Below, piece after piece: positions 42,679-63,697 of a stretch of DNA of 64,000 bases. Location of the stretch: positions 1-64,000 of IMG/VR virus record IMGVR_UViG_3300042154_002686; one strand, written 5' to 3'. Source of the stretch: a virus. The notes under the pieces were generated by a model, which ran no database searches, was not told the origin of the DNA, and saw only the letters and a list, made by a program, of their open reading frames with translations. Every line of letters begins with the position of its first letter. Position 1 is the first letter of the stretch. A program made the translations under genes and the position numbers.

Positions 42679-42873
42679 GGACAAGGTGGCTATCGCCACC
42701 TTTGTTGAGTGTCTACCGTCATTGTTTCTTTCTCAAACGCTTCCGTTCTTATGAAATAAGTAAAAATATTATTGATGTATTTGTTTTTAGAGTCTTCGGG
42801 TAGGTGCGAAGCACGGTCGATTTCGGAAAATAGTGCTCGCATCGGATACCCCCTGCCGTAGTGTCATGGAGCA

Positions 42874-43032
42874 ATGCGATACAACATCCGAAAGGGCGAA
42901 GGTTACATCCACTACATCATCGACACCCGCACCGACCGCAGGGTCAAGTTGGTCTATGGCTGGGAGATGGCTCTGAAGGTCTGCCGAGAATACAACCTCT
43001 TCTGGGCTGAGTTCAAGAAGACCAACTCGTAA
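42874..43032 (+). CDS. cassette ORF, 52 aa
   Basis: MRYNIRKGEGYIHY...; promoter and terminator flanks. Confidence 0.65.
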   Translation: MRYNIRKGEGYIHYIIDTRTDRRVKLVYGWEMALKVCREYNLFWAEFKKTNS

Positions 43033-43166
43033 GAACTAACGAGCCCCCACGGGGGCTCTTTTTTTTGACCTGCGAGGTAGGCCGTTGAGGGCATCAAATT
43101 GATATTGCACATGACCCCTCTCGCCCTCACTCTCATCTTATCAGCAACCCGCCACCCCTCCCGCAC

Positions 43167-43301
43167 ATGACCATCCTCGCCCTCGCCCTCGCCCTCGCTT
43201 ACGCCCTCGCCCTCGGCTGGCTTCTCCGTAAGATGAAGACCACCCCTGCCCTCCGCTCCGACCGCTCCGACCGAGTGACCATCTTCGGAGACAACCGCTA
43301 A
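43167..43301 (+). CDS. 44-aa single-TM peptide
   Basis: MTILALALALAYALALGWLLRK... Confidence 0.55.
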   Translation: MTILALALALAYALALGWLLRKMKTTPALRSDRSDRVTIFGDNR

Positions 43302-43335
43302 CCCCTCTCACCCACCCACCCACCCACCCACGCAC

Positions 43336-43530
43336 ATGACCCACGCCACCGCCACCGCCACCGTTAAGACCGACTGGGACTCCCTCCCCCTCGGTGAAGA
43401 CCTCTCCCACCTGTGCGGAGGTCGTAACAAGCACAAGACCGCCACCGAGGTGACCGACCTCGCCCCCTCGGGCGATGGCTGGAACATCCCCACCGCCTCG
43501 GCCATCCTCTCCGACCCCACCCTCGGCTAA
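43336..43530 (+). CDS. cassette ORF, paralogue of 47568-47768
   Basis: KTDWDSLPLGEDLSHLCGGRNKH. Confidence 0.7.
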   Translation: MTHATATATVKTDWDSLPLGEDLSHLCGGRNKHKTATEVTDLAPSGDGWNIPTASAILSDPTLG

Positions 43531-43573
43531 CCACCGAGGCAACCCCTCCAACCCCTCCAACCCTCCCACGCAC

Positions 43574-43792
43574 ATGACCACCGCCACCGCCCTCCCCGCC
43601 CTCCCGCCCGTCCTCCGCATCTCCCGCCCGACTCCTCTGACCACCGTCTGGTCTTATCTGGCCTCTGTCTCGGACGGAGACCGCATCGTCTTCCCCTGCG
43701 GTCTGCGGGTGACGGTCTCCGTCCGCAACCGCATGACCCTCGCCCTCATCATGGCGAAGCGAGGTCTCCGAGGCACGAAGCGAAACAGGTGA
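43574..43792 (+). CDS. cassette ORF
   Basis: MTTATALPALPP...; same CACGCACATG start context as 43336. Confidence 0.6.
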   Translation: MTTATALPALPPVLRISRPTPLTTVWSYLASVSDGDRIVFPCGLRVTVSVRNRMTLALIMAKRGLRGTKRNR

Positions 43793-43821
43793 ACGCCTGT
43801 TCACGGTGAACGAAAGTTCAC
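43789..43821. promoter_or_regulatory. tandem GTGAAC-N4-GTTCAC palindromes
   Basis: two 16-bp dyads; also at 45356, 46089, 49408. Confidence 0.7.
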
Positions 43822-43904
43822 TCTGCGGTAGGTGCGGCGGTGCGTAAATTTCGCCACCGAATTGTATCGCACAATGCGACCACATCGCCATGTTCATAGA
43901 TGCC

Positions 43905-44045
43905 ATGAAGAAGCCCCCCCAGCCCAAGAAGCCCAAGACCGCCAAGACCACCAAGCCCCTCACGGGCAAGGAACTCGCCAAGGAGGTGAACAAGTATCAA
44001 GGACTCGCCCGAGTCTCTCGGATGCTCGGCAACCTCTGGTCGTAA
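43905..44045 (+). CDS. basic cassette peptide, 46 aa
   Basis: MKKPPQPKKPKTAKTTKPLTGKELAKEVNK... Confidence 0.6.
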   Translation: MKKPPQPKKPKTAKTTKPLTGKELAKEVNKYQGLARVSRMLGNLWS

Positions 44046-44178
44046 GAACTACGGAGCCCCTGCGGGGGCTCCCTTTTTCGCAATGCGGTAGGTCGGTTAA
44101 TTGACCGAAATCAGTCGAATTATTTTCTGGTATCAGACCGTCAAATCGCTACATTCATCTTCGCACCCAATAAACGCC

Positions 44179-44415
44179 ATGTCTCATAAACTCAATGTCC
44201 TCACCCTCGCCCGCACGAACGCCCTCGCCCGCATCCGCAATGTTGGCGACAACATCGCTGATGCCAAGGAGAACCTTCGCCTCTCCGTCCTCAACCACGG
44301 AACTGGAAGCAAGGCGTGGAACTTCTGGAAGTCCGAACTCGCTCGCCATGACAGCGAGTGGACTGAAGTCTGCAACGAACTGCGGGAAATCGACTGGGAA
44401 CTCGGAAACAAGTAA
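44179..44415 (+). CDS. cassette ORF
   Basis: cassette architecture. Confidence 0.7.
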   Translation: MSHKLNVLTLARTNALARIRNVGDNIADAKENLRLSVLNHGTGSKAWNFWKSELARHDSEWTEVCNELREIDWELGNK

Positions 44416-44534
44416 GACGAAACGGGGAGCGAGTGCTCCCCTTTTTTGTGCCCCGAGGGTAGGCCGACCAGTGCGTAGATTTCGACAAAGATTTTGGTTT
44501 ACTCGGACGATGGTTCAACTACTGTGATGGTCTC

Positions 44535-44702
44535 ATGCAACCCGCTCCCCTGCCCGACCTCACTTACCTCTACATGCTCTCCGTTGAACTTGGAGACATT
44601 GCCCAATACTGCGACCGTGGTTCGCCCGAAGACCTCGCTTATCAGAAGGCGAAGCAAGACTACCTCGATGCGGTCTTCATGGGCGAAGACGAAGAGGGCT
44701 AA
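44535..44702 (+). CDS. acidic cassette ORF, 55 aa
   Basis: MQPAPLPDLTYLYML...GEDEEG; leaderless start. Confidence 0.65.
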   Translation: MQPAPLPDLTYLYMLSVELGDIAQYCDRGSPEDLAYQKAKQDYLDAVFMGEDEEG

Positions 44703-44847
44703 AGCCCCCGCCCGAAAGGAGTGAGAGACCCCAAGCGGGTCTCTCTTTTTCGCTCTGCGGATAGGCCGACCAATTGACCGAAATCAGTCGCACTTTGTTC
44801 TGGTATCCTGTCGGGTTTGTGCTACTGTGTCCTTGTTCCCAATACCC

Positions 44848-45048
44848 ATGATTACTAATGACCATACCGCCATCTGCTCCCGATACGCCCACCTCGGTGA
44901 CGCAGTCTGCTTTCGTCTCACCGCCATCGCCCGCACGATGCTCGTCATGCAGGGGCGACTTGCTCGCCTCGATAAGCGAGCGGGGGCTATGGCCGAACTT
45001 GCCCGATGCCGAGCCATGTGGTTCGAACTGACGGGGGAGAGGGTTTAA
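44848..45048 (+). CDS. cassette ORF
   Basis: cassette architecture. Confidence 0.6.
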   Translation: MITNDHTAICSRYAHLGDAVCFRLTAIARTMLVMQGRLARLDKRAGAMAELARCRAMWFELTGERV

Positions 45049-45173
45049 GACTCTCGCCCAGTTAGAACAGAAACGGAACCCATCGGGTTCCTTTTTTGTT
45101 CCCTGCGGGTAGGTCGCTACAACCGCCATTTTGCTCTCGACTTGGCCGATGCTTCTGCCACTCTGTTGGTCTT

Positions 45174-45359
45174 ATGACCTCCTCCTCCTCCCGCTCGCTG
45201 GCCCTCGCCCTCGCCTCGCACGAGGCCCACCTGCTCGACCTCGCCCTTCGCAGGGCCGAGTGCGTAGCCATGGGCCTCAATCCCGAGGACTATGTCCCCG
45301 CTGACCCCGTCTTTGACGAGGAGGACTATCGTCCCATCGTGCGGAAACGCTACGGGTGA
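45174..45359 (+). CDS. cassette ORF
   Basis: cassette architecture. Confidence 0.65.
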   Translation: MTSSSSRSLALALASHEAHLLDLALRRAECVAMGLNPEDYVPADPVFDEEDYRPIVRKRYG

Positions 45360-45389
45360 ACGCCCGTTCACTGGTGAACATTTGTTCAC
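45356..45389. promoter_or_regulatory. tandem GTGAAC-N4-GTTCAC palindromes
   Basis: seen directly. Confidence 0.7.
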
Positions 45390-45473
45390 TTCGTGGGTAG
45401 GCTGGCTCCTGCGTAAAATTGGGCAACGATTTGTATCGACCCAAGCCAAGGAATGACCACATTCATCTGTGCC

Positions 45474-45671
45474 ATGAAGAACGCATCCCTCCTCCCCCGC
45501 AACGCTCACCTCGCCATCAAGGAAGCCATCCTCGATGCTAAGGAAGCAAGGAACGAACTCAACCGCCTCGGCTCCCGCTACCACGGAATGTCCGAGAAGG
45601 TCGAAGAGCCCATCAAGAGCCTCGAAACCCTCATCGCCCGCCTCGAAGCGGTTCTCCCCAAGGCCGAGTGA
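45474..45671 (+). CDS. cassette ORF
   Basis: cassette architecture. Confidence 0.7.
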   Translation: MKNASLLPRNAHLAIKEAILDAKEARNELNRLGSRYHGMSEKVEEPIKSLETLIARLEAVLPKAE

Positions 45672-45803
45672 GGCCGAGGGTAAGAACCAGCGAGACCCCG
45701 AGTGGGGTCTCTTTTTTGGTCTGCGGGTAGGTCAGTTTGTGCATAGATTTAGACAAATAATTTCATCGACTATGAGCATCGGATAGCCACATTCACCTCT
45801 GCC

Positions 45804-46079
45804 ATGACGCACTCCTCCTCCCCCGCCTCGCCCGTGTTCCTCGTCACCGTTCAGTCCGTAGAATACTACGGTGAACGCTACTACAAGTTCAAGGGCGGGT
45901 TCAATGTCCTCGTCTCCACGGACAAGGACGCTACGGCCTTCGGCCTCGTCCTCGAATACCTTGTGGCGAACAAACTCGCCTCGGGCTACTACCCGAAGCA
46001 TGCCGAGCGGTTCGAGACCGAGGCAGATGCCCTCGCCACCCTCGACCCCGAATGGGAGACGGTCAGAGTCCGCCTCTGA
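45804..46079 (+). CDS. cassette ORF
   Basis: VEYYGERYYKFKGG; cassette architecture. Confidence 0.75.
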   Translation: MTHSSSPASPVFLVTVQSVEYYGERYYKFKGGFNVLVSTDKDATAFGLVLEYLVANKLASGYYPKHAERFETEADALATLDPEWETVRVRL

Positions 46080-46088
46080 GCGGAACAG

Positions 46089-46122
46089 GTGAACGGGTGT
46101 TCAGTAATGAACACTTGTTCAC
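46089..46122. promoter_or_regulatory. tandem TGAAC-N4-GTTCA palindromes
   Basis: seen directly. Confidence 0.7.
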
Positions 46123-46219
46123 TTCGTGGGTAGGCCGACTGGTGCTTAGATTTCGCCACCGAATTATCTCGATTTTTTTAAAACGACCCCCATAGTAATG
46201 GATGCATCAAGCAACCCAC

Positions 46220-46363
46220 ATGAACGACCTCCATAACAAAATCACCAAACTCGAAAACCGCCTCGCCAAGCGATGCCACCTCATCGGCCCTCGCTTCCGT
46301 GCCGCCCTCGAAAAGCGTCTCGAAGCAATGTATCAGCAGTTCAACGCCCGCCTCGCCAAGTAA
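46220..46363 (+). CDS. basic cassette peptide, 47 aa
   Basis: MNDLHNKITKLENRLAKR... Confidence 0.6.
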   Translation: MNDLHNKITKLENRLAKRCHLIGPRFRAALEKRLEAMYQQFNARLAK

Positions 46364-46486
46364 GGCGAAAGGACTAACCGCCCCCTCACGGGGGCTTTTT
46401 GTTCTCTTCGAGGGTAGGCCGATTAATTGACCGTTCGCTCATTAAAAACGAGTTGCGTCAGCACCCCCACCGTTTACCTTCATCTC

Positions 46487-46768
46487 ATGGCAATCACGCC
46501 CCACGGAGGTAAAACGAGCGACTCCTCCCGCTCTCCCACGGAAGTCTACCAGATGCTCGTCAGCATCTCGCAAGCCATCCGAGACGGTCGGAACGGCCTC
46601 GACCCCTTCGGCCACAAGTTGGCCGACCTCATGTCCGACCTCTTGGACGAAGTCCGAGACGAGGTCGAAGCGGCACGGAAGGAGGAACTAATCCTCCGAG
46701 CCAAGCGAGCGGCTCAAAACCTCTCCGACGACCTTCGGGCTCACGCTGTCGAAGAACACAGAGAGTAA
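46487..46768 (+). CDS. cassette ORF
   Basis: cassette architecture. Confidence 0.7.
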   Translation: MAITPHGGKTSDSSRSPTEVYQMLVSISQAIRDGRNGLDPFGHKLADLMSDLLDEVRDEVEAARKEELILRAKRAAQNLSDDLRAHAVEEHRE

Positions 46769-46888
46769 GAAGAACGGAGACCCTTCGGGGTCTCCTTTTT
46801 TTATTTCGTGGGTAGGCCGCCCCGTGCGTAGATTTCGACAAAGAATTTTGTTTACTTCGGTCACGAATTGACCACATTCATCTTTGCC

Positions 46889-47113
46889 ATGACGCACTCC
46901 CCCGCACTCGATGCCCTCCTCGAAACCAACCCCGCACTCTGGTTCGCTTACCAGAACCACGCCAACTACAAGGCCAAGGCCAAAGCCCACGAAGAAAAGA
47001 AGGAGTGGGCCAAGGCCACTTACTACCACGAACGCTCCATTAGCACTATCGGCTTCATCCACTCCATGGGCTACTCTGCCAAGAACATCGGCCAGCCCCG
47101 AGCAATCAAGTAA
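46889..47113 (+). CDS. cassette ORF
   Basis: cassette architecture. Confidence 0.7.
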   Translation: MTHSPALDALLETNPALWFAYQNHANYKAKAKAHEEKKEWAKATYYHERSISTIGFIHSMGYSAKNIGQPRAIK

Positions 47114-47242
47114 GACGAGACGGGAGAGGCGAAAGCCTCTCTCTTTTTGTCTGCGGGTAGGTCTGATACTGCATAAAATCAAGCAACGAATTTTCTGGTA
47201 TTCTACCGTGGATGCCGTAGTGTCATGGTCTCCCACCCAGCC

Positions 47243-47437
47243 ATGAACAAGACCAACCCAGAAGCCCGCCTCCGCCACATCGAAACCGTCCGTGCCCTGC
47301 GTCTCGCCCACGCCCGACACATGGCGAACTTCGACCGATACGCTCGCCTTGAAATGTTTGAGGCCGCACAGTATTGGCTCGGTCGGGCCAGCGAGGCCCA
47401 CAAGCAACTCCTCGACCTTGGAGAGATTGCCATCTAA
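47243..47437 (+). CDS. cassette ORF
   Basis: cassette architecture. Confidence 0.65.
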   Translation: MNKTNPEARLRHIETVRALRLAHARHMANFDRYARLEMFEAAQYWLGRASEAHKQLLDLGEIAI

Positions 47438-47567
47438 TCGATGGTCAGACCCAACGAGAGCCTTCGGGCTCTCTTTTTTTCTCTACGAGGGTAGGTCTGC
47501 TGGTGCGTAAATTTCGCCAGCGATTGTCGTTTACTTTTGGCACGGGATGACCACATTCATCTTTGCC

Positions 47568-47768
47568 ATGACGCACTCCTCCTCCCCCGCAACGACCGCC
47601 ACCAAGACCGACTGGGACAACCTCCCCCTCGGTGAAAACCTGTCCCACCTCTGCGGAGGTCGGAACAAGCACCCCCGCCTCGCCTCCGAGGTCGAGACCC
47701 AGACGAAGGACGACACGGTTCGCCCCTTCACTGCGAGCGAACTCCTCGGGGATGTTAGCATCGGCTAA
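47568..47768 (+). CDS. cassette ORF, paralogue of 43336-43530
   Basis: KTDWDNLPLGENLSHLCGGRNKH. Confidence 0.7.
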   Translation: MTHSSSPATTATKTDWDNLPLGENLSHLCGGRNKHPRLASEVETQTKDDTVRPFTASELLGDVSIG

Positions 47769-47900
47769 CCCCCGATGTTAGTTCTCAAACAAGAGCCTTC
47801 GGGCTCTTTTTTTGTCCCTGCGGATAGGTCTGTCTGTGGGTAAAATTCGACAAAGATTTTTGTTGTATCGGACGAGGAAAGCCCCCAGACTGTCGGAGTA

Positions 47901-48113
47901 ATGAAACTCCTCGCAACCGACATGACCCACAACGACATTCAAATTGCCAAGAACGCAACGATGGATGCCTTCGACACCCTCGAAGCCATCAAGTGCAAGT
48001 ATCCCGCCCTCGGGGAAGAGTGGGACAGCATCATCGCTGTCCAGCGTTTGCTGGTGAACCACACAATTGCTCTCTCCAATCTTGAAAACGCTCGAAACGG
48101 TTTGAAGCAGTAA
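47901..48113 (+). CDS. cassette ORF
   Basis: cassette architecture. Confidence 0.7.
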   Translation: MKLLATDMTHNDIQIAKNATMDAFDTLEAIKCKYPALGEEWDSIIAVQRLLVNHTIALSNLENARNGLKQ

Positions 48114-48245
48114 GAACAAGCGAGCCCCAAGTGGGGCTCTCTTTTTGTCTGCGAGGGTAGGTCCGAGACTGCGTAAAAATCGCCAGCGATTGTTATCGAT
48201 TTTTTTGAAAAACAGTCCATGGTTGTAGTCGCACCAACGCAACCC

Positions 48246-48455
48246 ATGATTAATCCCAATGCCGAGTTACTCCTCCACCTGTTCGCCAGCCAGAGCCTTC
48301 CCCTGCTCCAATGGACTGCTCGCAAGCGACAGAACTCCCTCTACATGCTGACCGTAAGGCAGGACATTACGGTAGACCAGCATATGAACTACATGGACAA
48401 TCTTGACGAAGTTGTAGCCTTCGTTCACGAATACGACCCGCCCTCGGTCAAGTGA
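48246..48455 (+). CDS. cassette ORF
   Basis: cassette architecture. Confidence 0.65.
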   Translation: MINPNAELLLHLFASQSLPLLQWTARKRQNSLYMLTVRQDITVDQHMNYMDNLDEVVAFVHEYDPPSVK

Positions 48456-48597
48456 GGGAAAGGTCTAATCGCCCCCTCACGGGGGCTTTTTATTTAGACC
48501 CCGAGGTAGGTCTGGCAATTGACCGAACGCTCATAAAATGGTGCTCGCTTTTTATGCGTTGGTGGTTCACAGTGTTGGAGTAATCAATAACCCTCCC

Positions 48598-48735
48598 ATG
48601 CATAACATCATCTCGTTCACCTCCGAAGAGTCCCTCGCCAAGTTCCTCTCGAACTTTGACATTACCACGAACCGCTTCACGGTCGAACAGACCTCGAAGA
48701 ACGGTTTCCTCCTCACCTTCTACCCGAGCATCTAA
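48598..48735 (+). CDS. cassette ORF, 45 aa
   Basis: cassette architecture. Confidence 0.6.
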   Translation: MHNIISFTSEESLAKFLSNFDITTNRFTVEQTSKNGFLLTFYPSI

Positions 48736-48909
48736 CCCACCCGAAAGGGCTCACCTCTACGGGGGTGGGCTCTTTTATTTTCTACGAGGGTAGGTGCGGA
48801 GGTGCGTGAAATTCGGCACACTTTTTTCTGGTATTTCGAGGTCTGTGTGCTACTGTGATGTCGCACTCAGCAACACCCACCCACACCCCCACCCACCACC
48901 ACCACCACC

Positions 48910-49161
48910 ATGTTCGTCTACACCGAAGAATACGCCCGCCAGCAGTCCGAAGCCCGCTCCGAGGCCATCCGTGCCCGTGCGGAATACGAGAAGACCGTCA
49001 CCCGCCAGAACGCCATGGCCGAGGCGTGGGATGCGGTCGAGAAGGCCGAGGACGACTGCCGCAAGGCCAAGGGCACGGTCGCCCGCAAGGAGGCCAAGAA
49101 GGCTCTGGCTTACGCTGACTGGGTCTGGAAGACCATGAACGACCCCAAGTTCAAGGTGTAA
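48910..49161 (+). CDS. cassette ORF (helical)
   Basis: cassette architecture. Confidence 0.7.
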   Translation: MFVYTEEYARQQSEARSEAIRARAEYEKTVTRQNAMAEAWDAVEKAEDDCRKAKGTVARKEAKKALAYADWVWKTMNDPKFKV

Positions 49162-49266
49162 TCCCAAACGAGCCCCTCACGGGGCTTTTTTGTGCCCTCT
49201 GCGGGTAGGTCTGGCGAGCCGCCATTTTGTTGTTGCTTTGCGGGCTGGTTGTGTCACTCTCTTCTT

Positions 49267-49400
49267 ATCGCTCCTGCGATATCAGTCTAATCGGTCTTCC
49301 CAGCAGTTAGTAGCCACTAACTCTAAGGCGGACACTGCTGGGATACGCCTCCCGATAGACTAACATAAGACCACCCCTTCGGGGGTGGCAGTTTGTTTTT
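49267..49400 (+). ncRNA. structured non-coding RNA cassette
   Basis: GTAGG motif, TTGCTT-16-CACTCT promoter and terminator but no ATG; nested stems and a possible pseudoknot. Confidence 0.7.
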
Positions 49401-49407
49401 GTGACTA

Positions 49408-49440
49408 GTGAACATTTGTTCACCATGAACATTTGTTCAC
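49408..49440. promoter_or_regulatory. tandem TGAACATTTGTTCAC palindromes
   Basis: seen directly. Confidence 0.7.
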
Positions 49441-49520
49441 CCTGCGGGTAGGCAACTTATACGACCGAACGCTCATAAGATAAAACTCGCACAAGCCCCC
49501 CGCCATGCTACTCTGATGAC

Positions 49521-49769
49521 ATGGAAATTACTCCACGCCAGCAGGGGCACGAAGCCGCCCGCTTTAACGAAGAAAACGAGCCGTATTTCGGCCCGCAGGA
49601 TGACGGGTGCTACGGCACTGTCCCGACCGACCGCCCTGCCCGCCGCCCAAGGGTGGCAAAGCGGCCCCAGACCTTCGTGGAGGACACCACGCACCCGAGG
49701 GGCACGAAGGCGTGGTATCTCCTCAATAAGGGCTGGCATGCCGCCCAGCACCGCCCATACTGGGACTAA
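49521..49769 (+). CDS. cassette ORF
   Basis: cassette architecture. Confidence 0.65.
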   Translation: MEITPRQQGHEAARFNEENEPYFGPQDDGCYGTVPTDRPARRPRVAKRPQTFVEDTTHPRGTKAWYLLNKGWHAAQHRPYWD

Positions 49770-50513: not shown

Positions 50514-50631
50514 CCCCAAACCAGCCCCTTCGGGGGCTTTTTTGTGCCCATCGAGGGTAGGTCGGACACTGCGTAAAAATCGGCAAAGATTTTTCTGGTT
50601 TTGGGGCAAAAGTGTGTTAGTGTGTTGGAGT

Positions 50632-50805
50632 ATGAAATACATCATCCTCAAGAACAGCAAAGAGTCGGCCCACTTCAACACGCTCGCCCCGTGGGCCGTC
50701 TACGACAACGACAACGGCCAGTTGGTCGCCAAGTTCACGACCCTCGCCAAGGCCAAGGCCATGGTGAACCAGTGGGCCGTCTACCTCGGGGGCGTGATTG
50801 GCTAA
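50632..50805 (+). CDS. cassette ORF
   Basis: leaderless; WAVYDNDNGQLVAKFTTLAKAKA. Confidence 0.7.
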   Translation: MKYIILKNSKESAHFNTLAPWAVYDNDNGQLVAKFTTLAKAKAMVNQWAVYLGGVIG

Positions 50806-54963: not shown

Positions 54964-55111
54964 ATCTGGTAATCGCCTCCACCCTGTCGGGTGGGGGCTT
55001 TTGCTTGCTACGGGGGTAGGCTTCTTAATTGACCGAACGCTCCATTAAATAATTCATTTTGGTCTGGTATTCTGACCAGAATAGTCTACTGTGTTGGTCT
55101 TCCCACCGCCC

Positions 55112-55489
55112 ATGAATAACATCCTCAACGCCCTCGCCGCCCTCGCCCAAGCCCGCACCGTCATCCGCACGGCATACGAGCCCAAGGCTATCCACTTCGC
55201 CCATGAGGAGTCCTGCCTCCGCAATGTGGTCAAGGCTCACGAAAGCCACATCTCCGCCTGTGCCAAGGCCAAGGCTGATGCTGGCTACGAGGTCGGCAAG
55301 TCCAGCAAATACACCGTCAAGCGTAAGGGTGAGGCTTACGAGAAAGCCATGGCTGACCTTGATGACGCTCGGGGGGCTTTCTTCAAGTTCAAGCAGGATG
55401 AGGCGTTTGCCCTTCATTGGCTCGCCCCCAAGCCCGCCCTCTCTGGCGACAGCACCCGCAACCCCGCTTGGTATTGGGCGGGTCGCTGA
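55112..55489 (+). CDS. cassette ORF
   Basis: cassette architecture. Confidence 0.7.
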   Translation: MNNILNALAALAQARTVIRTAYEPKAIHFAHEESCLRNVVKAHESHISACAKAKADAGYEVGKSSKYTVKRKGEAYEKAMADLDDARGAFFKFKQDEAFALHWLAPKPALSGDSTRNPAWYWAGR

Positions 55490-55513
55490 TGCGACCCCTC
55501 AACCCTTACCTCT

Positions 55514-57027: not shown

Positions 57028-57218
57028 GGGGTGAGGCAGGGGGGAGGTGGGACTCCCCCCTGTTAGTGCCTCCCAAAACCCAAGACCCCCCACGGGGTCA
57101 AAGGGCGGGGTAGGTTCTGTATGAGATGGAAATAAATGAAAATTGTGTTGAACTGTGAACCCCAATCTGCATTATCAGTTGAGTCGAAAGACACCAACAA
57201 ACCAAAAAACACCAAAAC

Positions 57219-57380
57219 ATGACCGACCCCCACGACTACGAATACGACTACGAAAGCGATGACGACCGCATGGACAGGGAGGATGCCCAATCCGAAGCCG
57301 AAGGCTCGGGCTACTACCGAGATATGCCCGTCCGCAACGAGGATGGCGAAATCATCGACTCCTCTGGCTGGGGAGTGTAA
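57219..57380 (+). CDS. 53-aa hyperacidic peptide
   Basis: MTDPHDYEYDYESDDDRMDREDAQSEAEGSGYYRDMPVRNEDGEIIDSSGWGV. Confidence 0.65.
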   Translation: MTDPHDYEYDYESDDDRMDREDAQSEAEGSGYYRDMPVRNEDGEIIDSSGWGV

Positions 57381-57527
57381 AGTAATCGCCTCACCCGAAA
57401 GGGTGGGGCTTCTTTGTGTCCAATGGGGGTAGGTATGTAATGCCGTCAAACAATCATAAATAGTTCTTGTATTTTGAGGCATCTGTGCTATTGTTACAGT
57501 CCATCACCAACCCAACAAAACACCAAA

Positions 57528-57773
57528 ATGAGCAATATGTCTTACTGTCGGTTCAGCAACACGGCCTCGGATATGCAGGACTGCGTGGACGAGTGGAACG
57601 AAGGAGTGTCGAGCAAGGATGAAGCCATCGCCCGCAAGGAGATGGTCGAACTTGCCGAGCGTATCCTTGAACTCTATCAGCAGGATAGAGGCATGGTCAA
57701 CAACCTCGAACTCAATGCCGAAGGCAGGGAGATGGAGGGCGATGACGAGGACGAGACCGAGGAGGAGGGTTAA
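57528..57773 (+). CDS. acidic phage protein (MSNMSYCRF type)
   Basis: MSNMSYCRFSNTASDMQDC. Confidence 0.75.
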   Translation: MSNMSYCRFSNTASDMQDCVDEWNEGVSSKDEAIARKEMVELAERILELYQQDRGMVNNLELNAEGREMEGDDEDETEEEG

Positions 57774-57904
57774 GCCCTCCTTTCCAAGACAGCCCACGGG
57801 CTGTTCCTTGGCGGGGGGTAGGCTTCTTAATTGACCGAACTTTCGTAAAGATTTGGGTTGTAGATGACCTCAATCCATGCATTATTGTAAGTCTAATCCC
57901 TCCC

Positions 57905-58738
57905 ATGACCACCACCACCGCCCCCAAGTCCACGGTTGCCGATGTTATCGCTGACCGCTTCATCAAGTCCCTCGAAAACGGAGTCGCCCCTTGGCAAAAG
58001 CCGTGGGCGAGCGTCCGCCCCCAGAACGGTGTCAGCCGTAAGCCTTACAAGGGCGTAAACGCCTTCATGCTGGCCTTCTTCGGGGGTGATGACTACTTCC
58101 TCACTTACAAGCAAGCCAAAGCCCTTGGCGGGCAGGTGGAAGAGGGTGCAAAGGGTATCCCCGTGACCTTCTGGAAGCGTATGGAGAAGAAGGACAAAAG
58201 CGGGGACTATCTGGTTTGCCGATACTACACGGTTTTCCCCGTGTCCAAGTGCGGACTCCCCGACTTCAAACGGGCGAACAAGGTCATTACCTTCTCCCCC
58301 GTAGAACTTGCCGAGGTCGTTCTTGCGAAGAACACGACCCCCGTCAGCCACGGCGGAGCCTCGGCTTACTACACGCCCTCCAAGCATGCAATCCAGATGC
58401 CCAATAAGGAGTCCTTCAAGTCGGTTGCTAACTATTACGCAACCCTCTTCCATGAGATTGGGCACTCCCTCGGGGAGCACTCCTCGGACTCCTTCGGGGG
58501 TGAGGTCTACGCAAAGGAGGAACTTGTGGCCGAACTTTTCGCCTCGATTGCCCTCCAACATTGCGGACTCCTCGAAAGCGTAAACTTCGACAATTCGACC
58601 GCTTACCTCGGGTCTTGGCTGAAAGCCCTTAATGATGATAAGACTCTCATCCAGAAAGCCAGCACGGAAGCCTTCAAGCGGTGGGAGAAACTGATGGGCA
58701 AGGTCGAAGAGGAGGTCGAGGAGGAGGTCGAGGCATAA
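57905..58738 (+). CDS. ardC: ArdC-like antirestriction protein (ssDNA-binding N-domain plus zincin-like domain)
   Basis: LENGVAPWQKPW, YKGVN, TYKQAKALGGQV, YYTVF, AYYTPS, TLFHEIGH, YAKEELVAE. Confidence 0.9.
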   Translation: MTTTTAPKSTVADVIADRFIKSLENGVAPWQKPWASVRPQNGVSRKPYKGVNAFMLAFFGGDDYFLTYKQAKALGGQVEEGAKGIPVTFWKRMEKKDKSGDYLVCRYYTVFPVSKCGLPDFKRANKVITFSPVELAEVVLAKNTTPVSHGGASAYYTPSKHAIQMPNKESFKSVANYYATLFHEIGHSLGEHSSDSFGGEVYAKEELVAELFASIALQHCGLLESVNFDNSTAYLGSWLKALNDDKTLIQKASTEAFKRWEKLMGKVEEEVEEEVEA

Positions 58739-58892
58739 GACCTCGGGGGTGGGGGCTGTTAGCCCTCACCCTTTTTTGTGTCCTCCCAAAAGGGCAAGGC
58801 ACGGAGTAGGTTCCTTAATTGACCGAACAATCGTATGGGGGGTCAAAGATTGTTCTCGCCTTTTGGGTGAAAGTGGTCATGCTGTATGTCCG

Positions 58893-59183
58893 ATGAATAA
58901 CACCACACCCACACACACGCTCCGCTTCACCTCTAACATGGTCTTCTGCAAGACCGAGTTTATGGCATCAGAGGAGTCCGTCACCCACGCCCTTAACATC
59001 CTGCAAGGCGAGCCAGACCTTGAACTCATGGTCGAGGTCAAGGAGACCCCCATGTCCGCAGGTCAAGAGTTCCCTTGCCTCTATCGGGTCAGCCCCACCA
59101 AGCCCGACCCCGAAGGGGATGCCTTTTGGTTTCTGACCGCAACCCTCTCAAACGGGCAGGAAGTTTATCTCCTGCAACGGTAA
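58893..59183 (+). CDS. cassette ORF
   Basis: cassette architecture. Confidence 0.7.
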   Translation: MNNTTPTHTLRFTSNMVFCKTEFMASEESVTHALNILQGEPDLELMVEVKETPMSAGQEFPCLYRVSPTKPDPEGDAFWFLTATLSNGQEVYLLQR

Positions 59184-59224
59184 AATAAACTTGCAATCCA
59201 TCCAACTCTAATCATACTCTCCTT

Positions 59225-59431
59225 ATGAATAACCTCAATACCTGTTCGTGCGGTAGCGGCAAGCCTTCCTTCTGGATTAATGACGGGCACGGCATCCCGC
59301 TGTGCAAGGTCTGCCCGACCTGCAAGGCGACCAAGTTGAAGGGGTATCGGTCGGACATTATGACGGCTTACTCGGCAGACGAGCCGATTGACGGGGACGG
59401 CTTTGCCGACTACGGAAACGAGGGCTGGTAG
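59225..59431 (+). CDS. small zinc-binding protein
   Basis: CSCGSGK...LCKVCPTC; TTGCAA-16-CATACT leaderless promoter. Confidence 0.75.
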   Translation: MNNLNTCSCGSGKPSFWINDGHGIPLCKVCPTCKATKLKGYRSDIMTAYSADEPIDGDGFADYGNEGW

Positions 59432-59558
59432 CCCTTCTTTTTGGGAGCCCCGAGGGGGGCTCTCTTTGCGGGGGTAGGCTCTTAATGACGGCAATTTGTC
59501 GTAAATGAGACTTGTAAATGACCCCGACCTGTGCATCATGTATTGTCTATCACCTCCC

Positions 59559-59771
59559 ATGAAAGACCCAAAAATCCACGCCATCGTCTCCGACCTCTAC
59601 TACCTCTGGCTCGACCAGATTGATGTTCGGAATACCTCCAAGTATGGAACTGCCAAATACGCCAAGGCGGAAGCCAAGGCTGACGAGTATGAGAACAAGG
59701 CTTCCATGATGGTCTTTGGAGACCACCTCCATACCATGACCGAGTGCTTCTACGGCAGGGAGGAAGAATAA
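59559..59771 (+). CDS. cassette ORF
   Basis: cassette architecture. Confidence 0.7.
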   Translation: MKDPKIHAIVSDLYYLWLDQIDVRNTSKYGTAKYAKAEAKADEYENKASMMVFGDHLHTMTECFYGREEE

Positions 59772-59819
59772 TCCAAAATAACACTTGCAATTTATCCAAA
59801 CCCATACATACTACTAAAC

Positions 59820-60179
59820 ATGATGAAAATCAAAGAAACCCCCACCCACTTCTCCGAAACCACCGTTAAGGACGGCAAGGTTTATTTTGACGGCCATGTT
59901 GCCGTCCTGTTTTCCGTTGGCTTTGGTGCTGGCTGGTCTACTTGGAACAGGGATGTGGACTGCCTGTTTACCCCCGCTATTGTCGAGCAGGTCATGCAGG
60001 GCGAAGTCACGCAGGAGTTTGCCAAGTCGTGCTACTCCGATGCCCCTTACTTCTATGCTGGGGGCAATGACGGCCTGTCCATCGCATGGGTCAAGGTCGG
60101 GACGAAGTTCCGCATCACGGAATACGATGGTGCGGAGGGTATCGAGACTCTCGACCAGACCGATTGGAAGACGGCTTGA
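59820..60179 (+). CDS. conserved-looking phage hypothetical protein
   Basis: VAVLFSVGFGAGWSTWN...FRITEYDGAE. Confidence 0.8.
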   Translation: MMKIKETPTHFSETTVKDGKVYFDGHVAVLFSVGFGAGWSTWNRDVDCLFTPAIVEQVMQGEVTQEFAKSCYSDAPYFYAGGNDGLSIAWVKVGTKFRITEYDGAEGIETLDQTDWKTA

Positions 60180-60304
60180 TAGTCGTGCCAGAGTCCAGCC
60201 TTACGGCTGGGCTCCATGCCGTGGGGGTAGGTTTCTTGCGGGCATAAAATAGTTCTTGTATTTTGAGCCATTCCATGCACAATGTCTTTCTCATCACCCA
60301 ACAC

Positions 60305-60625
60305 ATGAACAACAACACCACCCCCCTGTCCGCTTTCTTGGCGGAACACACCACCCACCTCCCCTCGGAAGTCCTTGTCCTCTGGATGGACAACCTTAAC
60401 GAGACCGTCCCGACCCGCAAGTTGCTCGACCAAGCGGAAGACGCTTACATTGGCGAGTTCCGAGACTTCACCCGCCTTGCCGAGCATCTGGTAGACGAGT
60501 CGGGCATGCTCTCTAACATCCCCTCCGAAATCGCCAACTATTTCGATTATGAGAAGTATGGCAACGACCTCCGACTTGGCGGGGATGTCTGGGAGTCGGA
60601 TGGGCACTTCTTCCGCAACATCTAA
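60305..60625 (+). CDS. ardA: ArdA-like antirestriction (DNA-mimic) protein
   Basis: EDAYIGEF...AEHLVDESGML.NIPSEIANYFDYEKYGNDL...GHFF. Confidence 0.85.
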   Translation: MNNNTTPLSAFLAEHTTHLPSEVLVLWMDNLNETVPTRKLLDQAEDAYIGEFRDFTRLAEHLVDESGMLSNIPSEIANYFDYEKYGNDLRLGGDVWESDGHFFRNI

Positions 60626-60638
60626 TCCAACACCAACC

Positions 60639-60806
60639 ATGAAAAAACCCAAAATCAAAAACACCGTGGACACGGAACAAGTCCTCGCTTGGCTCGGGGA
60701 CGACGACACCCTTGAACAGGCTATCGAAATCATTGCCGACATTGCAAACGGGGACTACAAGCCCAACTTGCTCCGACAGGAAATCACCGATTATAACCAA
60801 GAATAA
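60639..60806 (+). CDS. hypothetical protein
   Basis: MKKPKIKNTVDTEQVLAWLG... Confidence 0.65.
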   Translation: MKKPKIKNTVDTEQVLAWLGDDDTLEQAIEIIADIANGDYKPNLLRQEITDYNQE

Positions 60807-61060
60807 TGGAAACTATGAACGACATTGAAAAGCAAATTGTGGCATTAAACTCTGATTATCTCACCTGCCCCGAGACCCTGCCTCGGGCGTGGTCGGAGAT
60901 GACTCCGAGCGAGCAAGCCATGACCATCTGGTTCGTTAAGGGGCGTTCCTTCTTCTATGTGGATAAGATTGCCCGCCATGTGGTCGCCTGTGCCATCGAG
61001 AAGAACGGTGGGACGATTACCGAAGAAGAGGCGACTCGGCTCTGGGGGCTGTTTCACTGA
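60806..61060 (+). CDS. hypothetical protein
   Basis: TAATG coupling. Confidence 0.65.
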   Translation: METMNDIEKQIVALNSDYLTCPETLPRAWSEMTPSEQAMTIWFVKGRSFFYVDKIARHVVACAIEKNGGTITEEEATRLWGLFH

Positions 61061-61179
61061 CACCCCTCATTTTTCCGACCCCCCGTCAACGGGGGCAAGG
61101 CGGGGTAGGCTTCTAATTGAGCGAAACATTTCATTAGATTTTTCTTGAACTTTGGTTCAAACTATGAATAATGATTTGA

Positions 61180-61353
61180 ATGAACCACCCCATCCGATAT
61201 AACATCAATGACTACATCTACGCAGAAGCGGAAGTTATCCGTGCCCACCGCTACGGAAACCTTGCCGAGCAAATCAAGGCAACGGAACACAAGCAGAAAG
61301 TCCTCAAAGCCATGGAAGAACAGCGAAAGGAAGACGAAGAAAACCGAAAATAA
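61180..61353 (+). CDS. cassette ORF, 57 aa
   Basis: MNHPIRYNINDYIYAEAEV...; ATG 71 nt after motif. Confidence 0.6.
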   Translation: MNHPIRYNINDYIYAEAEVIRAHRYGNLAEQIKATEHKQKVLKAMEEQRKEDEENRK

Positions 61354-61393
61354 ATCTCGACAAAAGAGAAAAACCATGCACAATGACTCTCGT

Positions 61394-61534
61394 ATGAAAA
61401 CCAAATCCATCAAGTTCATCGACATTATGACCAGCGTCCGCAAGGTCGGGGGTCGGGCTTCCTCTGTCTTCATCGGCAAGAAAGCCAAGGTTCGTGCCAA
61501 CCGCCACGCTTGGAAGAAGGAGGAACTCGTCTAA
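61394..61534 (+). CDS. basic 46-aa peptide, paralogue of 52002-52136
   Basis: IMTSVRKVGGRAS...KKAKVRANRHAWK. Confidence 0.7.
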   Translation: MKTKSIKFIDIMTSVRKVGGRASSVFIGKKAKVRANRHAWKKEELV

Positions 61535-61788
61535 TGCGAACCAACTCAAAAGTCACGAAGGAGGAACTCCGCATGGCCTCCGAGGAGACTCGCTACATCC
61601 TCAAAAAGCCTCCGCTTGAATACGCCAACACCGATGCTGGGTTTGGTGCGGCTACGAGGGACTTTGAATTCCTCATGGACTACGCCCTTGGGACTGACGA
61701 GGGAGAGGTCATCAACAACGCCTTGGATTGGAAACGCTGGGAACTCCAAGCGTATTACAAGAAACTCCACGGATGGGACATTGTTTAA
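61534..61788 (+). CDS. hypothetical protein
   Basis: TAATG coupling. Confidence 0.65.
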   Translation: MRTNSKVTKEELRMASEETRYILKKPPLEYANTDAGFGAATRDFEFLMDYALGTDEGEVINNALDWKRWELQAYYKKLHGWDIV

Positions 61789-61790
61789 TT

Positions 61791-61985
61791 ATGAGCAATC
61801 AGACATTCCGAGTTAAGAACATCGAGACGGGAGAAATCCATGTCTGGGATGCCAAGCGGGTTCTTGCGGAAATCAACCGAGACCGCTATGACGAGTGGAT
61901 GAACTATGACGAGGATGACGACATTCGTGGGGCTTGGAACATCTGGGTCGAGGATGGAGAACCTTGGCGGATGTTGGACGAGTAA
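61791..61985 (+). CDS. hypothetical protein
   Basis: VLAEINRDRYDEWMNYDE motif. Confidence 0.7.
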   Translation: MSNQTFRVKNIETGEIHVWDAKRVLAEINRDRYDEWMNYDEDDDIRGAWNIWVEDGEPWRMLDE

Positions 61986-62102
61986 GTAGTCGAGCCCCTT
62001 CGGGGGCTCTTCTTTTGTCTTGCCGTGGTAGGCTTTTAATGACGGCAGATTGTCGTAAAATTGTGTTGTATTAACGCCAGAAGTGTGAACAATGTCTCTC
62101 GT

Positions 62103-62324
62103 ATGAACAACCTCATCCATCCCTCCCTCCGTTCCCTTCACGCCCTCCGAGATGTTGAAGGGGATGCCATTGACCCTCACTTCTCTTGGAGTCCCTGCGA
62201 GTGCTGTGGAGACCGCCTTGGCGGTAATCGCTACGACTGTGAAGCCCTTGCCGTTGAGAACGGGGTTCTGGTTCAACTCGACAACTGCTCGGCTTGCCCC
62301 GACTGCATTGTGAAGTTTCAGTAA
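62103..62324 (+). CDS. Cys-rich cassette ORF
   Basis: FSWSPCECCGDRLGGNRY...CPDC. Confidence 0.75.
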   Translation: MNNLIHPSLRSLHALRDVEGDAIDPHFSWSPCECCGDRLGGNRYDCEALAVENGVLVQLDNCSACPDCIVKFQ

Positions 62325-62380
62325 AATAAACTTGCATTAATAAAAAAACCTGCCATACTGCATCTCACATCACCAATACT

Positions 62381-62686
62381 ATGAACCTCGGCATCGAATA
62401 CAAAATCAAATACTTCACCAACTACGAAACAAAGGAGGAGAAGGAGATTGTTATCACCATGGACAAGGTAGACAACCTCTACATTGGCAAGGGCAATTCC
62501 TGCCGTTGCGGATGCGGGGGCGACTATTTTGAAATTGATGAAAACGAGCGAGCCATCGAGAAATCCCTGCGACAAATGTCCAGCGGTGAATACGAGGTTC
62601 GCTCCATTGAGGACTACATCTTCGAAATCACCACCAGCGTAAATGGTGACTACGAGCGTGTGAAAACGCTCTACCTCAAAAAATAA
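62381..62686 (+). CDS. hypothetical protein
   Basis: YIGKGNSCRCGCGGDY; own promoter TTGCAT-16-CATACT. Confidence 0.75.
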   Translation: MNLGIEYKIKYFTNYETKEEKEIVITMDKVDNLYIGKGNSCRCGCGGDYFEIDENERAIEKSLRQMSSGEYEVRSIEDYIFEITTSVNGDYERVKTLYLKK

Positions 62687-62725
62687 ACCTTGCAAAAACA
62701 GAAAAACCTGTTATCTTGTATCTCT

Positions 62726-63022
62726 ATGAATAACCCCGAACAGTTCCAGAAAGTTAAGAATGAAGTCACGGACGAAATCGTAAAGCGATACGGACACCCT
62801 GTGTCCTTTTGGGAGAAGTTCCAAATCAAGAACATTGTCGGCAAGGTCATGGCGGAGGCGGACAAGAATGGGGAGGCTTGCCTCATCTACCAAGCCGTAG
62901 CAGAAATGGCGGAAAAGATGCACGAAGAATGCGTGGTGGAGTTTGAAGACGAATTGGAGTGCAAGCAGAGGTCTGGCCGTGTTCTTGGCATTTGTTGCCA
63001 TGCGAACGCACTTTGTGGCTAA
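62726..63022 (+). CDS. hypothetical protein
   Basis: TTGCAA-16-TATCTT leaderless promoter. Confidence 0.65.
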   Translation: MNNPEQFQKVKNEVTDEIVKRYGHPVSFWEKFQIKNIVGKVMAEADKNGEACLIYQAVAEMAEKMHEECVVEFEDELECKQRSGRVLGICCHANALCG

Positions 63023-63146
63023 CCGTAGCACCCTGTTAAAACACCCCTCTGGGGGTGTGTTTAGCACGGGGGTAGGCTTTTAATTGCACGAAGATTGTCG
63101 TAAAATGTTGTTGCCTTTGACCCCAAAGTGTGAATGATGTATGTCT

Positions 63147-63473
63147 ATGACCACCCATACTACTCCTCGATACTACCTCACCCCCTGCATCGGCTCGACC
63201 GAGCAAAAGAGTGACGGCATCCGCTACATCATGGCAGAGCCGTCTTACATCCGCTCGCTTGTGCGTGAAGCAGTTAAGAGTGGCAATACCGACACCTTCT
63301 CCGAAGAGGTTATCATCCACTCGAAGGATGGCGGTGACAACTCCCCGCAGGACTCCGAAGTCTATGTTGCCCGATTTGACACCCATGCTTCTTGGGGTCT
63401 CCGTCTTGACATTGACATTGACGAGTCTTCTACGCAGACCCTCTGGCTCGAATTCGTTCGAGACGCTAACTAA
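63147..63473 (+). CDS. cassette ORF
   Basis: ATG 71 nt after motif. Confidence 0.7.
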   Translation: MTTHTTPRYYLTPCIGSTEQKSDGIRYIMAEPSYIRSLVREAVKSGNTDTFSEEVIIHSKDGGDNSPQDSEVYVARFDTHASWGLRLDIDIDESSTQTLWLEFVRDAN

Positions 63474-63475
63474 TC

Positions 63476-63649
63476 ATGGAAGACCAAGATAAGCACCGCA
63501 TGGCAGAGGTTCGAGACCTTGTGCTTTATGTTATCCGAGCAAAGGACAAGTTGGATGGGCAGGGTGAACCTGCCCGTTCCGAGAACCTTGCCAGAATTCG
63601 AGAAGCCCAGATGCGACTTGAAGTCATAAAGGCAGAGATGGGGTTATGA
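63476..63649 (+). CDS. hypothetical protein, 57 aa
   Basis: MEDQDKHRMAEVRDLVLYVIRAK... Confidence 0.55.
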   Translation: MEDQDKHRMAEVRDLVLYVIRAKDKLDGQGEPARSENLARIREAQMRLEVIKAEMGL

Positions 63650-63697
63650 CCCCATTTTTGCCACCCCCCCTCACAGGCAAACAACTGGGGTAGGCTT

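Follow-up and report, generated by a model that had tools for sequence, protein, structure and literature searches.

A conserved TAGG box in the spacers of a small-gene cassette array of an uncultured freshwater phage: a possible shared site for a trans-acting factor

Introduction

In T4-type phages, small variable open reading frames (ORFs) are flanked by PeSLs, i.e., composite modules of a terminator and an early promoter that mediate shuffling (PMC4122927, PMC2839356), and in Cluster A mycobacteriophages such as L5, asymmetric and oriented stoperators, more than 20 of them, occupy short intergenic spaces (PMC9283540). Here we analyze a locus that shares traits with both, an array of small gene cassettes in the IMG/VR record IMGVR_UViG_3300042154_002686, and in particular a short box with the core TAGG that stands in the spacers between its cassettes. 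The record is an 80,561-bp contig of an uncultured freshwater phage, estimated to be 83% complete and labeled G000 (related contigs are labeled G001, L087, and so on). The window, i.e., the whole stretch that was analyzed, comprises its bases 1 to 64,000.

Two further kinds of short site are relevant for comparison. Class I activator sites lie at fixed places upstream of the promoter, CRP binding at −61.5, −71.5, and −82.5 and Fis at site I at −71 of rrnB P1, beside an UP element. Phages also avoid restriction sites, and T7 keeps the EcoP15I site CAGCAG in a single orientation. A preliminary description of the window had taken the box, in the form GGGTAGG, for an imperfect dyad at helically phased distances from leaderless start codons, where a single protein would act on about 49 promoters. 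Based on its anatomy and distribution, we propose with moderate confidence that the box is a site for a trans-acting factor, for which shut-off or insulation of the cassettes would be more likely than a CRP-like class I activation.

The cassette array and its intergenic box

The array occupies positions 42793–64000 on the + strand of the window, runs on to ~67 kb of the contig, and consists mostly of single-gene cassettes, with few multi-gene ones. From 42.8 kb to ~67 kb there are ~65 small ORFs, every one of them on the + strand and 44–277 amino acids in size. The G+C content of the array is 53–57%, vs 40–46% over much of the length of the left arm, a difference of ~10 points. This left arm (1–42790, − strand) carries the structural, packaging, and replication genes and is purged of TAGG and CCTA.

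GGGTAGG is present 40 times on the + strand of the window and not once on the − strand, compared with 5.1 ± 2.1 copies (maximum 11) in shuffled sequences, and in the whole 80.5-kb contig all 51 copies of the shorter GTAGG are on the + strand. When the variants GATAGG, GTTAGG (51246), and AGTAGG (58805) are included, the cassette boxes, of the general form NNTAGG, number 49 in the window, in agreement with the figure of about 49 given before, and 51 up to 66 kb. All 51 copies are intergenic and lie on the + strand. The NNTAGG hexamers of the window start at 42799, 43076, 43827, 44087, 44458, 44760, 45108, 45396, 45726, 46129, 46413, 46811, 47156, 47490, 47823, 48156, 48505, 48789, 49204, 49447, 49820, 50135, 50556, 50860, 51246, 51573, 51926, 52181, 52562, 52899, 53270, 53593, 53994, 54229, 54642, 55015, 55666, 56017, 56421, 57109, 57428, 57817, 58805, 59473, 60226, 61104, 62027, 63071, and 63689. 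In an alignment of these 49 copies anchored on the box, the information content is ~2 bits at each of the six box positions (GGTAGG) and stays below 1 bit at the −35, the −10, and all other module positions.

The proposed imperfect dyad did not hold up. A Watson–Crick stem of at least 4 bp is formed by 6 of the 51 copies, while shuffled sequences gave 1.8 on average and 6 at most; stems allowing G–U pairs are no commoner than in shuffles, and a search of the array against Rfam returned no match. The core is asymmetric, and not the dyad-symmetric site of a dimeric class I activator. Judging from these sequences, the unit to which a protein would bind is an asymmetric core of 4–5 bp.

Module anatomy and spacing

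Aligned on the box, the modules share a common order of elements. A T-run ends ~8 nt upstream of the box, A/T blocks follow at +20–24 and +33–38, and weaker columns mark the −35-like and −10-like hexamers of a sigma70-like promoter, of the forms T(T/G/C)Gnnn and (T/C)AnnnT, which are separated by a 16-nt spacer. The DNA between the box and the −35 has 65–70% A+T, and position 62 ± 1 from the box is the first of the −10-like hexamer. The ATG stands 6–12 nt past the −10 box in 27 of 48 cassettes, which look leaderless. Terminators are strongly enriched in the array and mostly on the + strand (56 vs 14.5 ± 3.8 expected in an independent scan), and the distance from hairpin to core is 10–20 nt, as it is in G001 and L087 for both orientations of the core.

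A canonical module of the leaderless type spans 50523–50634 (+ strand), with a hairpin at 50523–50538 followed by a T-run, GGGTAGG at 50555–50561, A/T boxes at about 50573–50595, TGGTTT at 50596–50601, the 16-nt spacer, TAGTGT at 50618–50623, and the ATG at 50632, i.e., 9 nt past the −10 box and 71 nt past the last G of the motif. The module at 47122–47245 (+ strand) is built in the same way and has a 20-nt leader, with the terminator at 47122–47143 and its T-run, GGGTAGG at 47155–47161, TGGTAT at 47196–47201, TAGTGT at 47218–47223, and the ATG at 47243.

The register of the box is narrow. The first base of NNTAGG lies 38–41 nt before the start of the −35-like hexamer in 43 of 51 copies, vs 13% of random anchors (binomial p = 6e-30), and all seven spacing outliers are found at 29/30 or 50/51 nt, i.e., displaced by −10/11 or +10/11 nt (p = 4e-6). 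These outlier modules have lost or gained one A/T box of 10–11 bp. In the short class, exemplified by the module at 45107–45176 (+ strand), the box is one A/T unit nearer to the promoter: GGGTAGG at 45107–45113 is followed by TCGACT at 45137–45142 (offset 29), CACTCT at 45159–45164, and the ATG at 45174; further boxes of this class start at 43076, 49204, 52899, and 60226 (+ strand). In the long class, it is one unit farther, as in the module at 55014–55114 (+ strand), with GGGTAGG at 55014–55020, TGGTAT at 55065–55070 (offset 50), TACTGT at 55087–55092, and the ATG at 55112. A second long-class copy, AGTAGG at 58805–58810 (+ strand), has its −35 box at 58856 and its ATG at 58893.

The preliminary description had measured the spacing to the start codon. 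The motif-to-ATG pairs that it listed (71, 73, 58–61, and 83 nt) are all correct and the clustering is real, but the range of 69–74 nt that it gave for most cassettes was too general, since 68–74 nt applies to only 25 of 48 cassettes and the rest lie at 77–116 nt because of leaders of 15–54 nt. The spacing is much sharper to the −35 box than to the ATG, and therefore the −35 box is the better reference point.

Measured in this way, the register resembles that of class I activators. If the transcription start site (TSS) is taken ~7 nt past the −10, the center of the box lies ~72 nt upstream of it and the outliers near −61 and −82, all seven being displaced by 10–11 nt. A/T-rich UP-like boxes fill the region from −40 to −60, and many of the linked −35 hexamers are non-consensus (e.g., TGGTAT or TCGAnn). 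An activator supplied by the host or delivered with the virion could thus contact the alpha-CTD from about −72 (or −61/−82), on the same face of the DNA, and boost ~50 early promoters, an arrangement reminiscent of rrnB P1 or of the class I promoters of CRP. We regard this as unlikely, though it is the main sub-alternative. A short, asymmetric site with a weak dyad does not suit such an activator, and neither do the promoters of the array that have no box.

These motif-less promoters look complete, with A/T-rich upstream DNA and good −35 hexamers. One of them (59785–59812, + strand) has TTGCAA, a 16-nt spacer, and CATACT directly past a stop codon, with neither a terminator nor TAGG. Similar ones, with −35 boxes at 61357 (TCGACA), 62332 (TTGCAT), 62690 (TTGCAA), and 63957 (TTGACT), all on the + strand, each stand right past a stop codon and have no terminator. 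The earlier claim that linked promoters have poorer −35 boxes than motif-less ones found little support: TTG is present in 20 of 49 linked vs 5 of 6 motif-less promoters (Fisher p = 0.08), and the contrast is gone in the distal array, where the motif-less promoters sit (9 of 11 vs 5 of 6). The argument that the box compensates for a weak −35 is therefore weak, as it is confounded by the position in the array.

Boxes also occur outside the complete module. The box at 63688–63694 (+ strand) has no recognizable promoter at the canonical distance; similar copies are found beyond the window at 64551 and 67222, the former being kept in G001 with a different flank. The first box of the array (hexamer at 42799) has no terminator upstream. 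Since promoters that are not preceded by a terminator look complete without the box, we conclude that the box is not a core or obligatory promoter part and that it marks cassette boundaries in non-transcribed spacers.

The box in related phages

The 56-kb contig G001 is collinear with G000, 86–92% identical to it in terminase and helicase, and has the same cassette architecture, with boxes of the forms (T)TGCTAGG, CATAGG, GTTAGG, and GATAGG. The metagenome contigs L087/L068, L070, L040, and L024 carry GCATAGG, CGCTAGG, CGTTAGG, and GGGTAGG. Among the relatives as a whole, the forms include TTGCTAGG, GCATAGG, CGCTAGG, and GTTAGG, each genome having uniform flanks of its own. All array genomes have only TAGG(T/C) in common, and at least five array-bearing relatives besides G000 carry the TAGG core in the corresponding position. 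A search of IMG/VR with exact patterns of the G000-type module gave single chance matches or none.

The relatives differ from G000 in the placement of the box. Inverted boxes are present in G001 and L087 (CCTAGCAAAC, CCTATGCA), some of them as inverted pairs 10–40 bp apart, and the numbers of direct and inverted TAGG in the whole contig are 46/26 in G001 and 12/6 in L087. The distance from the core to the −35 clusters at 35.5, 46.5–49.5, and 58 bp in G001 and extends up to 82 bp in L087 (35–82 bp overall), in steps of ~11.5 bp, which match extra A/T boxes and not a strict helical repeat of 10.5 bp. A class I activator is difficult to reconcile with a box that is carried both ways, over 35–82 bp, and in steps of this size. 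Within G000, the class I-like geometry described before is real, its center falling near −72 and its outliers near −61 and −82 if the TSS is placed as above; it does not extend to the relatives.

Cassettes are shuffled between close relatives. About 30 of the 65 cassette proteins of G000 have homologs in G001, in scrambled order (42.8–64 kb of the window vs 19–46 kb of G001, L031–L033), and orthologous cassettes can be matched at the nucleotide level only over the ORF, up to a few bases from its start and stop codons. The scrambled order and the end of homology at the ORF limits indicate that ORFs move between 'slots' and that the modules are homogenized within each genome. Because the modules turn over while the core survives, the TAGG core would be under purifying selection. 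Survival of the core amid such turnover argues for selection on the core itself and against a recombination crossover.

An alternative is that the box has no function of its own and is copied as part of a homogenized module through RecT/exonuclease recombination, or that it is a mere homology patch for shuffling, as in the PeSLs of T4. Genome-specific flanks that are uniform within a genome would be expected from this, as would a cassette order scrambled between G000 and G001 with homology stopping at the ORF ends, and the phage does encode RecT and a PDDEXK exonuclease. However, everything in the modules but the box has diverged, the same 4-bp core recurs unchanged in six or more genomes between which the rest of the module cannot be aligned, and the word is kept in the boxes alone against a ten-fold purge across the genome. 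We consider hitch-hiking of this kind very unlikely.

Even less probable, to the point of being remote, is a role of the box in site-specific recombination, as the crossover point at which a recombinase would insert and excise cassettes in the way of integron attC sites. Co-oriented single-ORF cassettes in scrambled order among relatives, the inverted pairs of G001, and some copies of the form GTTAGG, which resembles the attC core GTTRRRY, would fit such a site. On the other hand, the homology of orthologous cassettes ends at start and stop codons and not at boxes, every cassette has its own promoter and terminator, and no tyrosine or serine recombinase was found among the larger ORFs scanned of this 83% complete contig. 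An integron array proper, with promoterless cassettes, attC inverted repeats, and IntI, was rejected on the same grounds, i.e., the cassettes' own promoters and terminators, breakpoints off the box, and no integrase among the scanned ORFs.

More distant relatives do not share the array. G002, G006, and G007 lack both a cassette array and clusters of terminators, and in G006, G007, and G011 the array is missing from the homologous locus between the helicase module and the DUF932 gene. The comparative evidence thus comes from one clade.

Avoidance of TAGG outside the array

Outside the boxes, TAGG and CCTA are depleted about ten-fold on both strands. The contig has 2 copies of CCTA and 63 of TAGG, ~51 of the latter being cassette boxes and ~12 non-box copies, while ~140 are expected for each word, and the + strand of the left arm has 8 TAGG and 1 CCTA. 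The density of CCTA on the sense strand of four conserved genes (putative major capsid protein, TerL, portal protein, and helicase) is 0.3 per kb, vs 2.2–3.6 per kb in non-avoiding relatives. Both strands are thus depleted of the word, as in restriction-site avoidance, whether the reference is base composition or the non-avoiding relatives. Cleavage of RNA was rejected as the cause: UAGG and CCUA are both avoided in the sense strands of both arms, so that two specificities would be needed. Two of the residual left-arm copies of TAGG, at 37651 and 41780, share a 20-nt context (GTTTGCTTGGTCTAGGATTG), the − strand of which resembles the inverted box of G001 (CCTAG..CAAAC).

TAGG is one of many avoided words. 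GATC, ACGT, AGCT, CGCG, and GCWGC are absent from the contig, and CCGG and GCGC have one copy each. CCWGG, CGWCG, and GGWCC are also strongly depleted, and the asymmetric TCAGG and CCTGA have 0 and 1 copies. Across ten related contigs, each of the words examined (GATC, ACGT, AGCT, CGCG, CCGG, GCGC, GGCC, GCWGC, CCWGG, TCAGG, and TAGG) is avoided or not independently of the others; GATC is at or near zero (at most 2 copies) in every related contig examined. Such a mosaic is a pattern typical of pressure from host restriction systems. TAGG itself is avoided in G000, G001, G003, L067, L087, and the more distant G011, and not avoided in G002, G006, G007, and G009.

These data raise the possibility that TAGG/CCTA is the word of a restriction-like or other cutting, nicking, or modifying system of the host, removed by the phage wherever it can, the copies in the spacers being protected, harmless, or exploited. 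TAGG behaves like the other avoided words in the independent mosaic, G011 avoids it without having an array, all 63 TAGG of G000 lie on one strand vs 2 CCTA, left-half sequences read CCTGC or TCTAC and not CCTAC, and ArdA-family and ArdC-like proteins are encoded in the array. Sites in a single orientation might escape enzymes that need head-to-head sites, as with EcoP15I and T7; alternatively, the sites might be nicked specifically, as in T5 or phiKMV. This explanation is a serious rival as regards the purge, but we judge it, in its general form and in these variants alike, distinctly unlikely. With fifty sites retained, the phage would still be fully sensitive, and avoidance elsewhere would be useless unless the sites of the array were protected. 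Escape by orientation is defeated in G001 and L087, which keep both orientations, sometimes 10–40 bp apart, and exactly one copy per spacer at a fixed register is not accounted for. We know of no restriction enzyme with this asymmetric 4-bp site (REBASE was not searched). The class I activator, for its part, gives no account of a purge of TAGG from both strands of all genes.

Regulatory interpretation

We hypothesize that a protein binds at the box, TAGG(T/C) being the invariant core of its site and GGGTAGG the extended form of this core in this phage. It would belong to a module of ~95 bp consisting of an intrinsic terminator, 10–20 nt, the box, a variable 'second box', one to three A/T-rich UP-like units of 10–11 bp, hexamers of −35-like and −10-like type, and an ATG with a short leader or none. 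Such modules would separate ~50 early cassettes for small proteins, including the ArdA-family and ArdC-like anti-restriction proteins. A sequence-specific DNA-binding factor that reads the box in each non-transcribed spacer could place the whole array under coordinate control, and we consider negative control, i.e., an early shut-off or an insulation between cassettes in the manner of an operator or stoperator, more likely than a CRP-like class I activation. The fixed spacing could result from the homogenization of modules within the genome, with changes in length by whole A/T units, after which the box would happen to stay on a single face of the DNA.

The purge on both strands fits a harmful binding (by a repressor, silencer, roadblock, or nuclease) better than an activator, because binding inside transcribed DNA would be costly. 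One common trans-acting factor is the simplest reading of a box that is strand-pure and locked in position, and to this extent the single protein of the preliminary description stands; its CRP-like mode of activation is weakened by the orientations and distances seen in relatives, by promoters that have no motif, and by a site that is asymmetric.

Several observations weigh against the shared-operator reading. Activators such as CRP or Fis, more typically than repressors, have rigidly spaced sites centered near −72, and the occurrence of both orientations over 35–82 bp in the relatives argues against any mechanism that needs a precise geometry between protein and RNA polymerase. The promoters deviate from the E. 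coli consensus, and a scan for the strict sigma70 form of it gave no excess (7 vs 4.3); the promoters and TSSs are for this reason inferred from positional conservation. In G011, TAGG is purged although no array is present at the homologous locus, where the DUF932 gene abuts the helicase module, so that the purge may stem from a cause other than the box, e.g., a restriction-like system of the host. Finally, scans against Pfam or PHROG gave no DNA-binding family match for the candidates named before and ~50 further small proteins; these scans covered other small left-arm proteins, ten array proteins, and genes specific to G000 and G001.

The candidate binders of the preliminary description (6395–6808, 36842–37441, which was scanned as 36842–37621, and 3438–3824) were not substantiated, as they have no Pfam or PHROG match at all. 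Two other proteins were considered and discarded. The protein at 35716–36471, with a helix-turn-helix resembling sigma70_r4, is the small terminase subunit, and the ParB_N protein at 4064–4834 is an unlikely reader of TAGG, being 76–82% identical in relatives that do not avoid the word. A polar roadblock that aids intrinsic termination was also rejected, since a box 10–20 nt past the hairpin would stall the polymerase before the U-tract is transcribed and the orientation is not kept in relatives; we retain it only as part of the insulation option. Likenesses to KOPS (GGGNAGGG), Chi, the REP 'GTAG' with its RAYT transposases, NtcA, and OxyR were dropped, because the flanks of relatives (GCTAGG, CATAGG) do not fit them.

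A bolder reading, which we advance tentatively and think rather unlikely, takes TAGG as the recognition word of an activity of phage or host that reads double-stranded DNA, a word that this phage lineage has erased from all transcribed DNA and retains as exactly one copy per non-transcribed spacer of the early anti-defense array. If so, one factor could distinguish the middle and late genome, free of TAGG, from the early cassettes and perhaps also from host DNA rich in the word, and the early cassettes could be switched off or on as a block. This would amount to self/non-self discrimination and temporal control by avoidance of a word and not by base modification.

If one factor reads TAGG at ~50 promoters, the array would offer natural, standardized 'expression slots' for anti-restriction and other early genes under one switch, a compact example of how a phage may coordinate a large and fast-shuffled early-gene arsenal, and a source of modular promoter and terminator parts for a host without Shine–Dalgarno (SD) sequences. 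A 4-bp word that is purged from the genome and yet kept once per spacer is unusual, and it poses a testable question: by which protein or restriction-like system is TAGG read in these lake bacteria and in their phages? These results also call for caution, as 'helical phasing' in a single genome can arise from homogenized modules that change in length by units of 10–11 bp.

Other features of the array and the phage

Two of the cassette genes belong to recognizable anti-restriction families. The gene at 60305–60625 (+ strand) is of the ArdA family (PF07275, E = 2.7e-14), and the ArdC-like gene at 57905–58738 (+ strand) encodes an ArdcN domain and a zincin metallopeptidase domain; for most of the other cassette products, no family was matched. 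We regard the array as a probable early anti-defense island.

Further sequence elements accompany the modules. Tandem TGAAC-N4-GTTCA palindromes take the place of the terminator just upstream of the box at 43790–43820, 45357–45388, 46090–46121, and 49409–49439 (+ strand), with 10 matches in the window vs 0.14 expected, and similar pairs also occur in G001. They resemble the GAAC-N4-GTTC boxes of the SOS response (LexA) or operators of dimeric repressors. Second boxes, 6–32 nt past each box, are of two alternative types, which are intermixed along the array and may correspond to classes of promoter. The first type, TGCGTAAA(A/T)T..., is found in ~18 cassettes, mostly proximal, and the second, TTAATTGACCGAAC, in ~17 cassettes including looser variants, 12 of them with exact ATTGACCGAA and some with GAC-N8-GTCG. 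Four cassettes (50931, 52252, 52634, and 54300) have a 5′ leader in common, GGAGTCGAAAGACACC, with a small GUC-GAAA-GAC hairpin and then an A/C-rich stretch before the ATG. The cassette at 49204–49440 has a box, a short-class promoter, and a terminator, but no ATG-started ORF of at least 25 codons and no Rfam match.

The left arm encodes a lambda-type large terminase (gpA), a lambda-type portal, an AAA_25 helicase, and tail proteins, as well as the small terminase subunit and a ParB_N/PAPS-reductase pair. In this pair, the ParB_N-domain protein overlaps the PAPS-reductase-like protein (4064–5865, − strand); the two are 62–82% identical in relatives, whether these avoid TAGG or not, and they resemble an IbrB/IbrA-like pair. 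The right end of the contig contains the DUF932 gene, RecT, the PDDEXK exonuclease, and an SLT lysozyme.

A megablast search against isolated phages gave no match, and the identity of TerL to its best relatives among isolates is 24% or less. A scan of GTDB genomes with TerL yielded no host, and the neighbors of TerL and of the ArdC-like protein in the ESM Atlas were viral or uninformative in this respect. The genes are without SD sequences and have A/C-rich leaders, which is no more than a hint at a host from an SD-poor phylum.

Comparison with known systems

With class I activator sites, the array shares a box center near −72 from the inferred TSS, variants by one turn, and a position just upstream of A/T-rich UP-like DNA. 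It differs from them in a box that is not a dyad, in an orientation and distance that are not kept in relatives, and in the existence of box-less promoters. The likeness to restriction-site avoidance lies in the ten-fold depletion on both strands, the mosaic among relatives, and the single orientation of the remaining copies in G000. Here, however, the avoided word is kept once per regulatory spacer and is strongly conserved, and relatives retain both orientations.

The similarity to T4-type PeSLs is closer. Both are modules of terminator and early promoter around small variable ORFs in a hyperplastic region, and in both the cassettes are shuffled between close relatives while core genes stay collinear. 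In the array, a terminator followed directly by a putative early promoter is repeated between small variable ORFs, and gain, loss, and shuffling of cassettes are evident from the scrambled order and the ORF-bounded homology, presumably through recombination. In contrast to PeSLs, an extra, near-invariant box of 4–7 bp separates the terminator from the promoter, and the rest of the genome is purged of its core word. Moreover, this phage, with its lambda-type gpA terminase and portal, is unrelated to T4, and ~50 modules form one uninterrupted array.

Like stoperators, the boxes of G000 are many asymmetric intergenic sites in one orientation to transcription (51 of 51 co-oriented), suggesting one phage-wide factor; this uniform orientation is not kept in G001 or L087. 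Stoperators are 13-mers read by a known monomeric immunity repressor in temperate phages, whereas the core found here has 4–5 bp, occurs in both orientations in relatives, and keeps a fixed register to the promoters that follow it. Among the ORFs scanned, no family of repressors or integrases was recognized, in a contig that is 83% complete and in which most small proteins have no family match.

Overall, the array is closest to PeSLs in its architecture and to stoperators in its logic. It belongs to neither family, because the phage is unrelated, the core measures only 4–5 bp and lies upstream of promoters, and the word is otherwise avoided.

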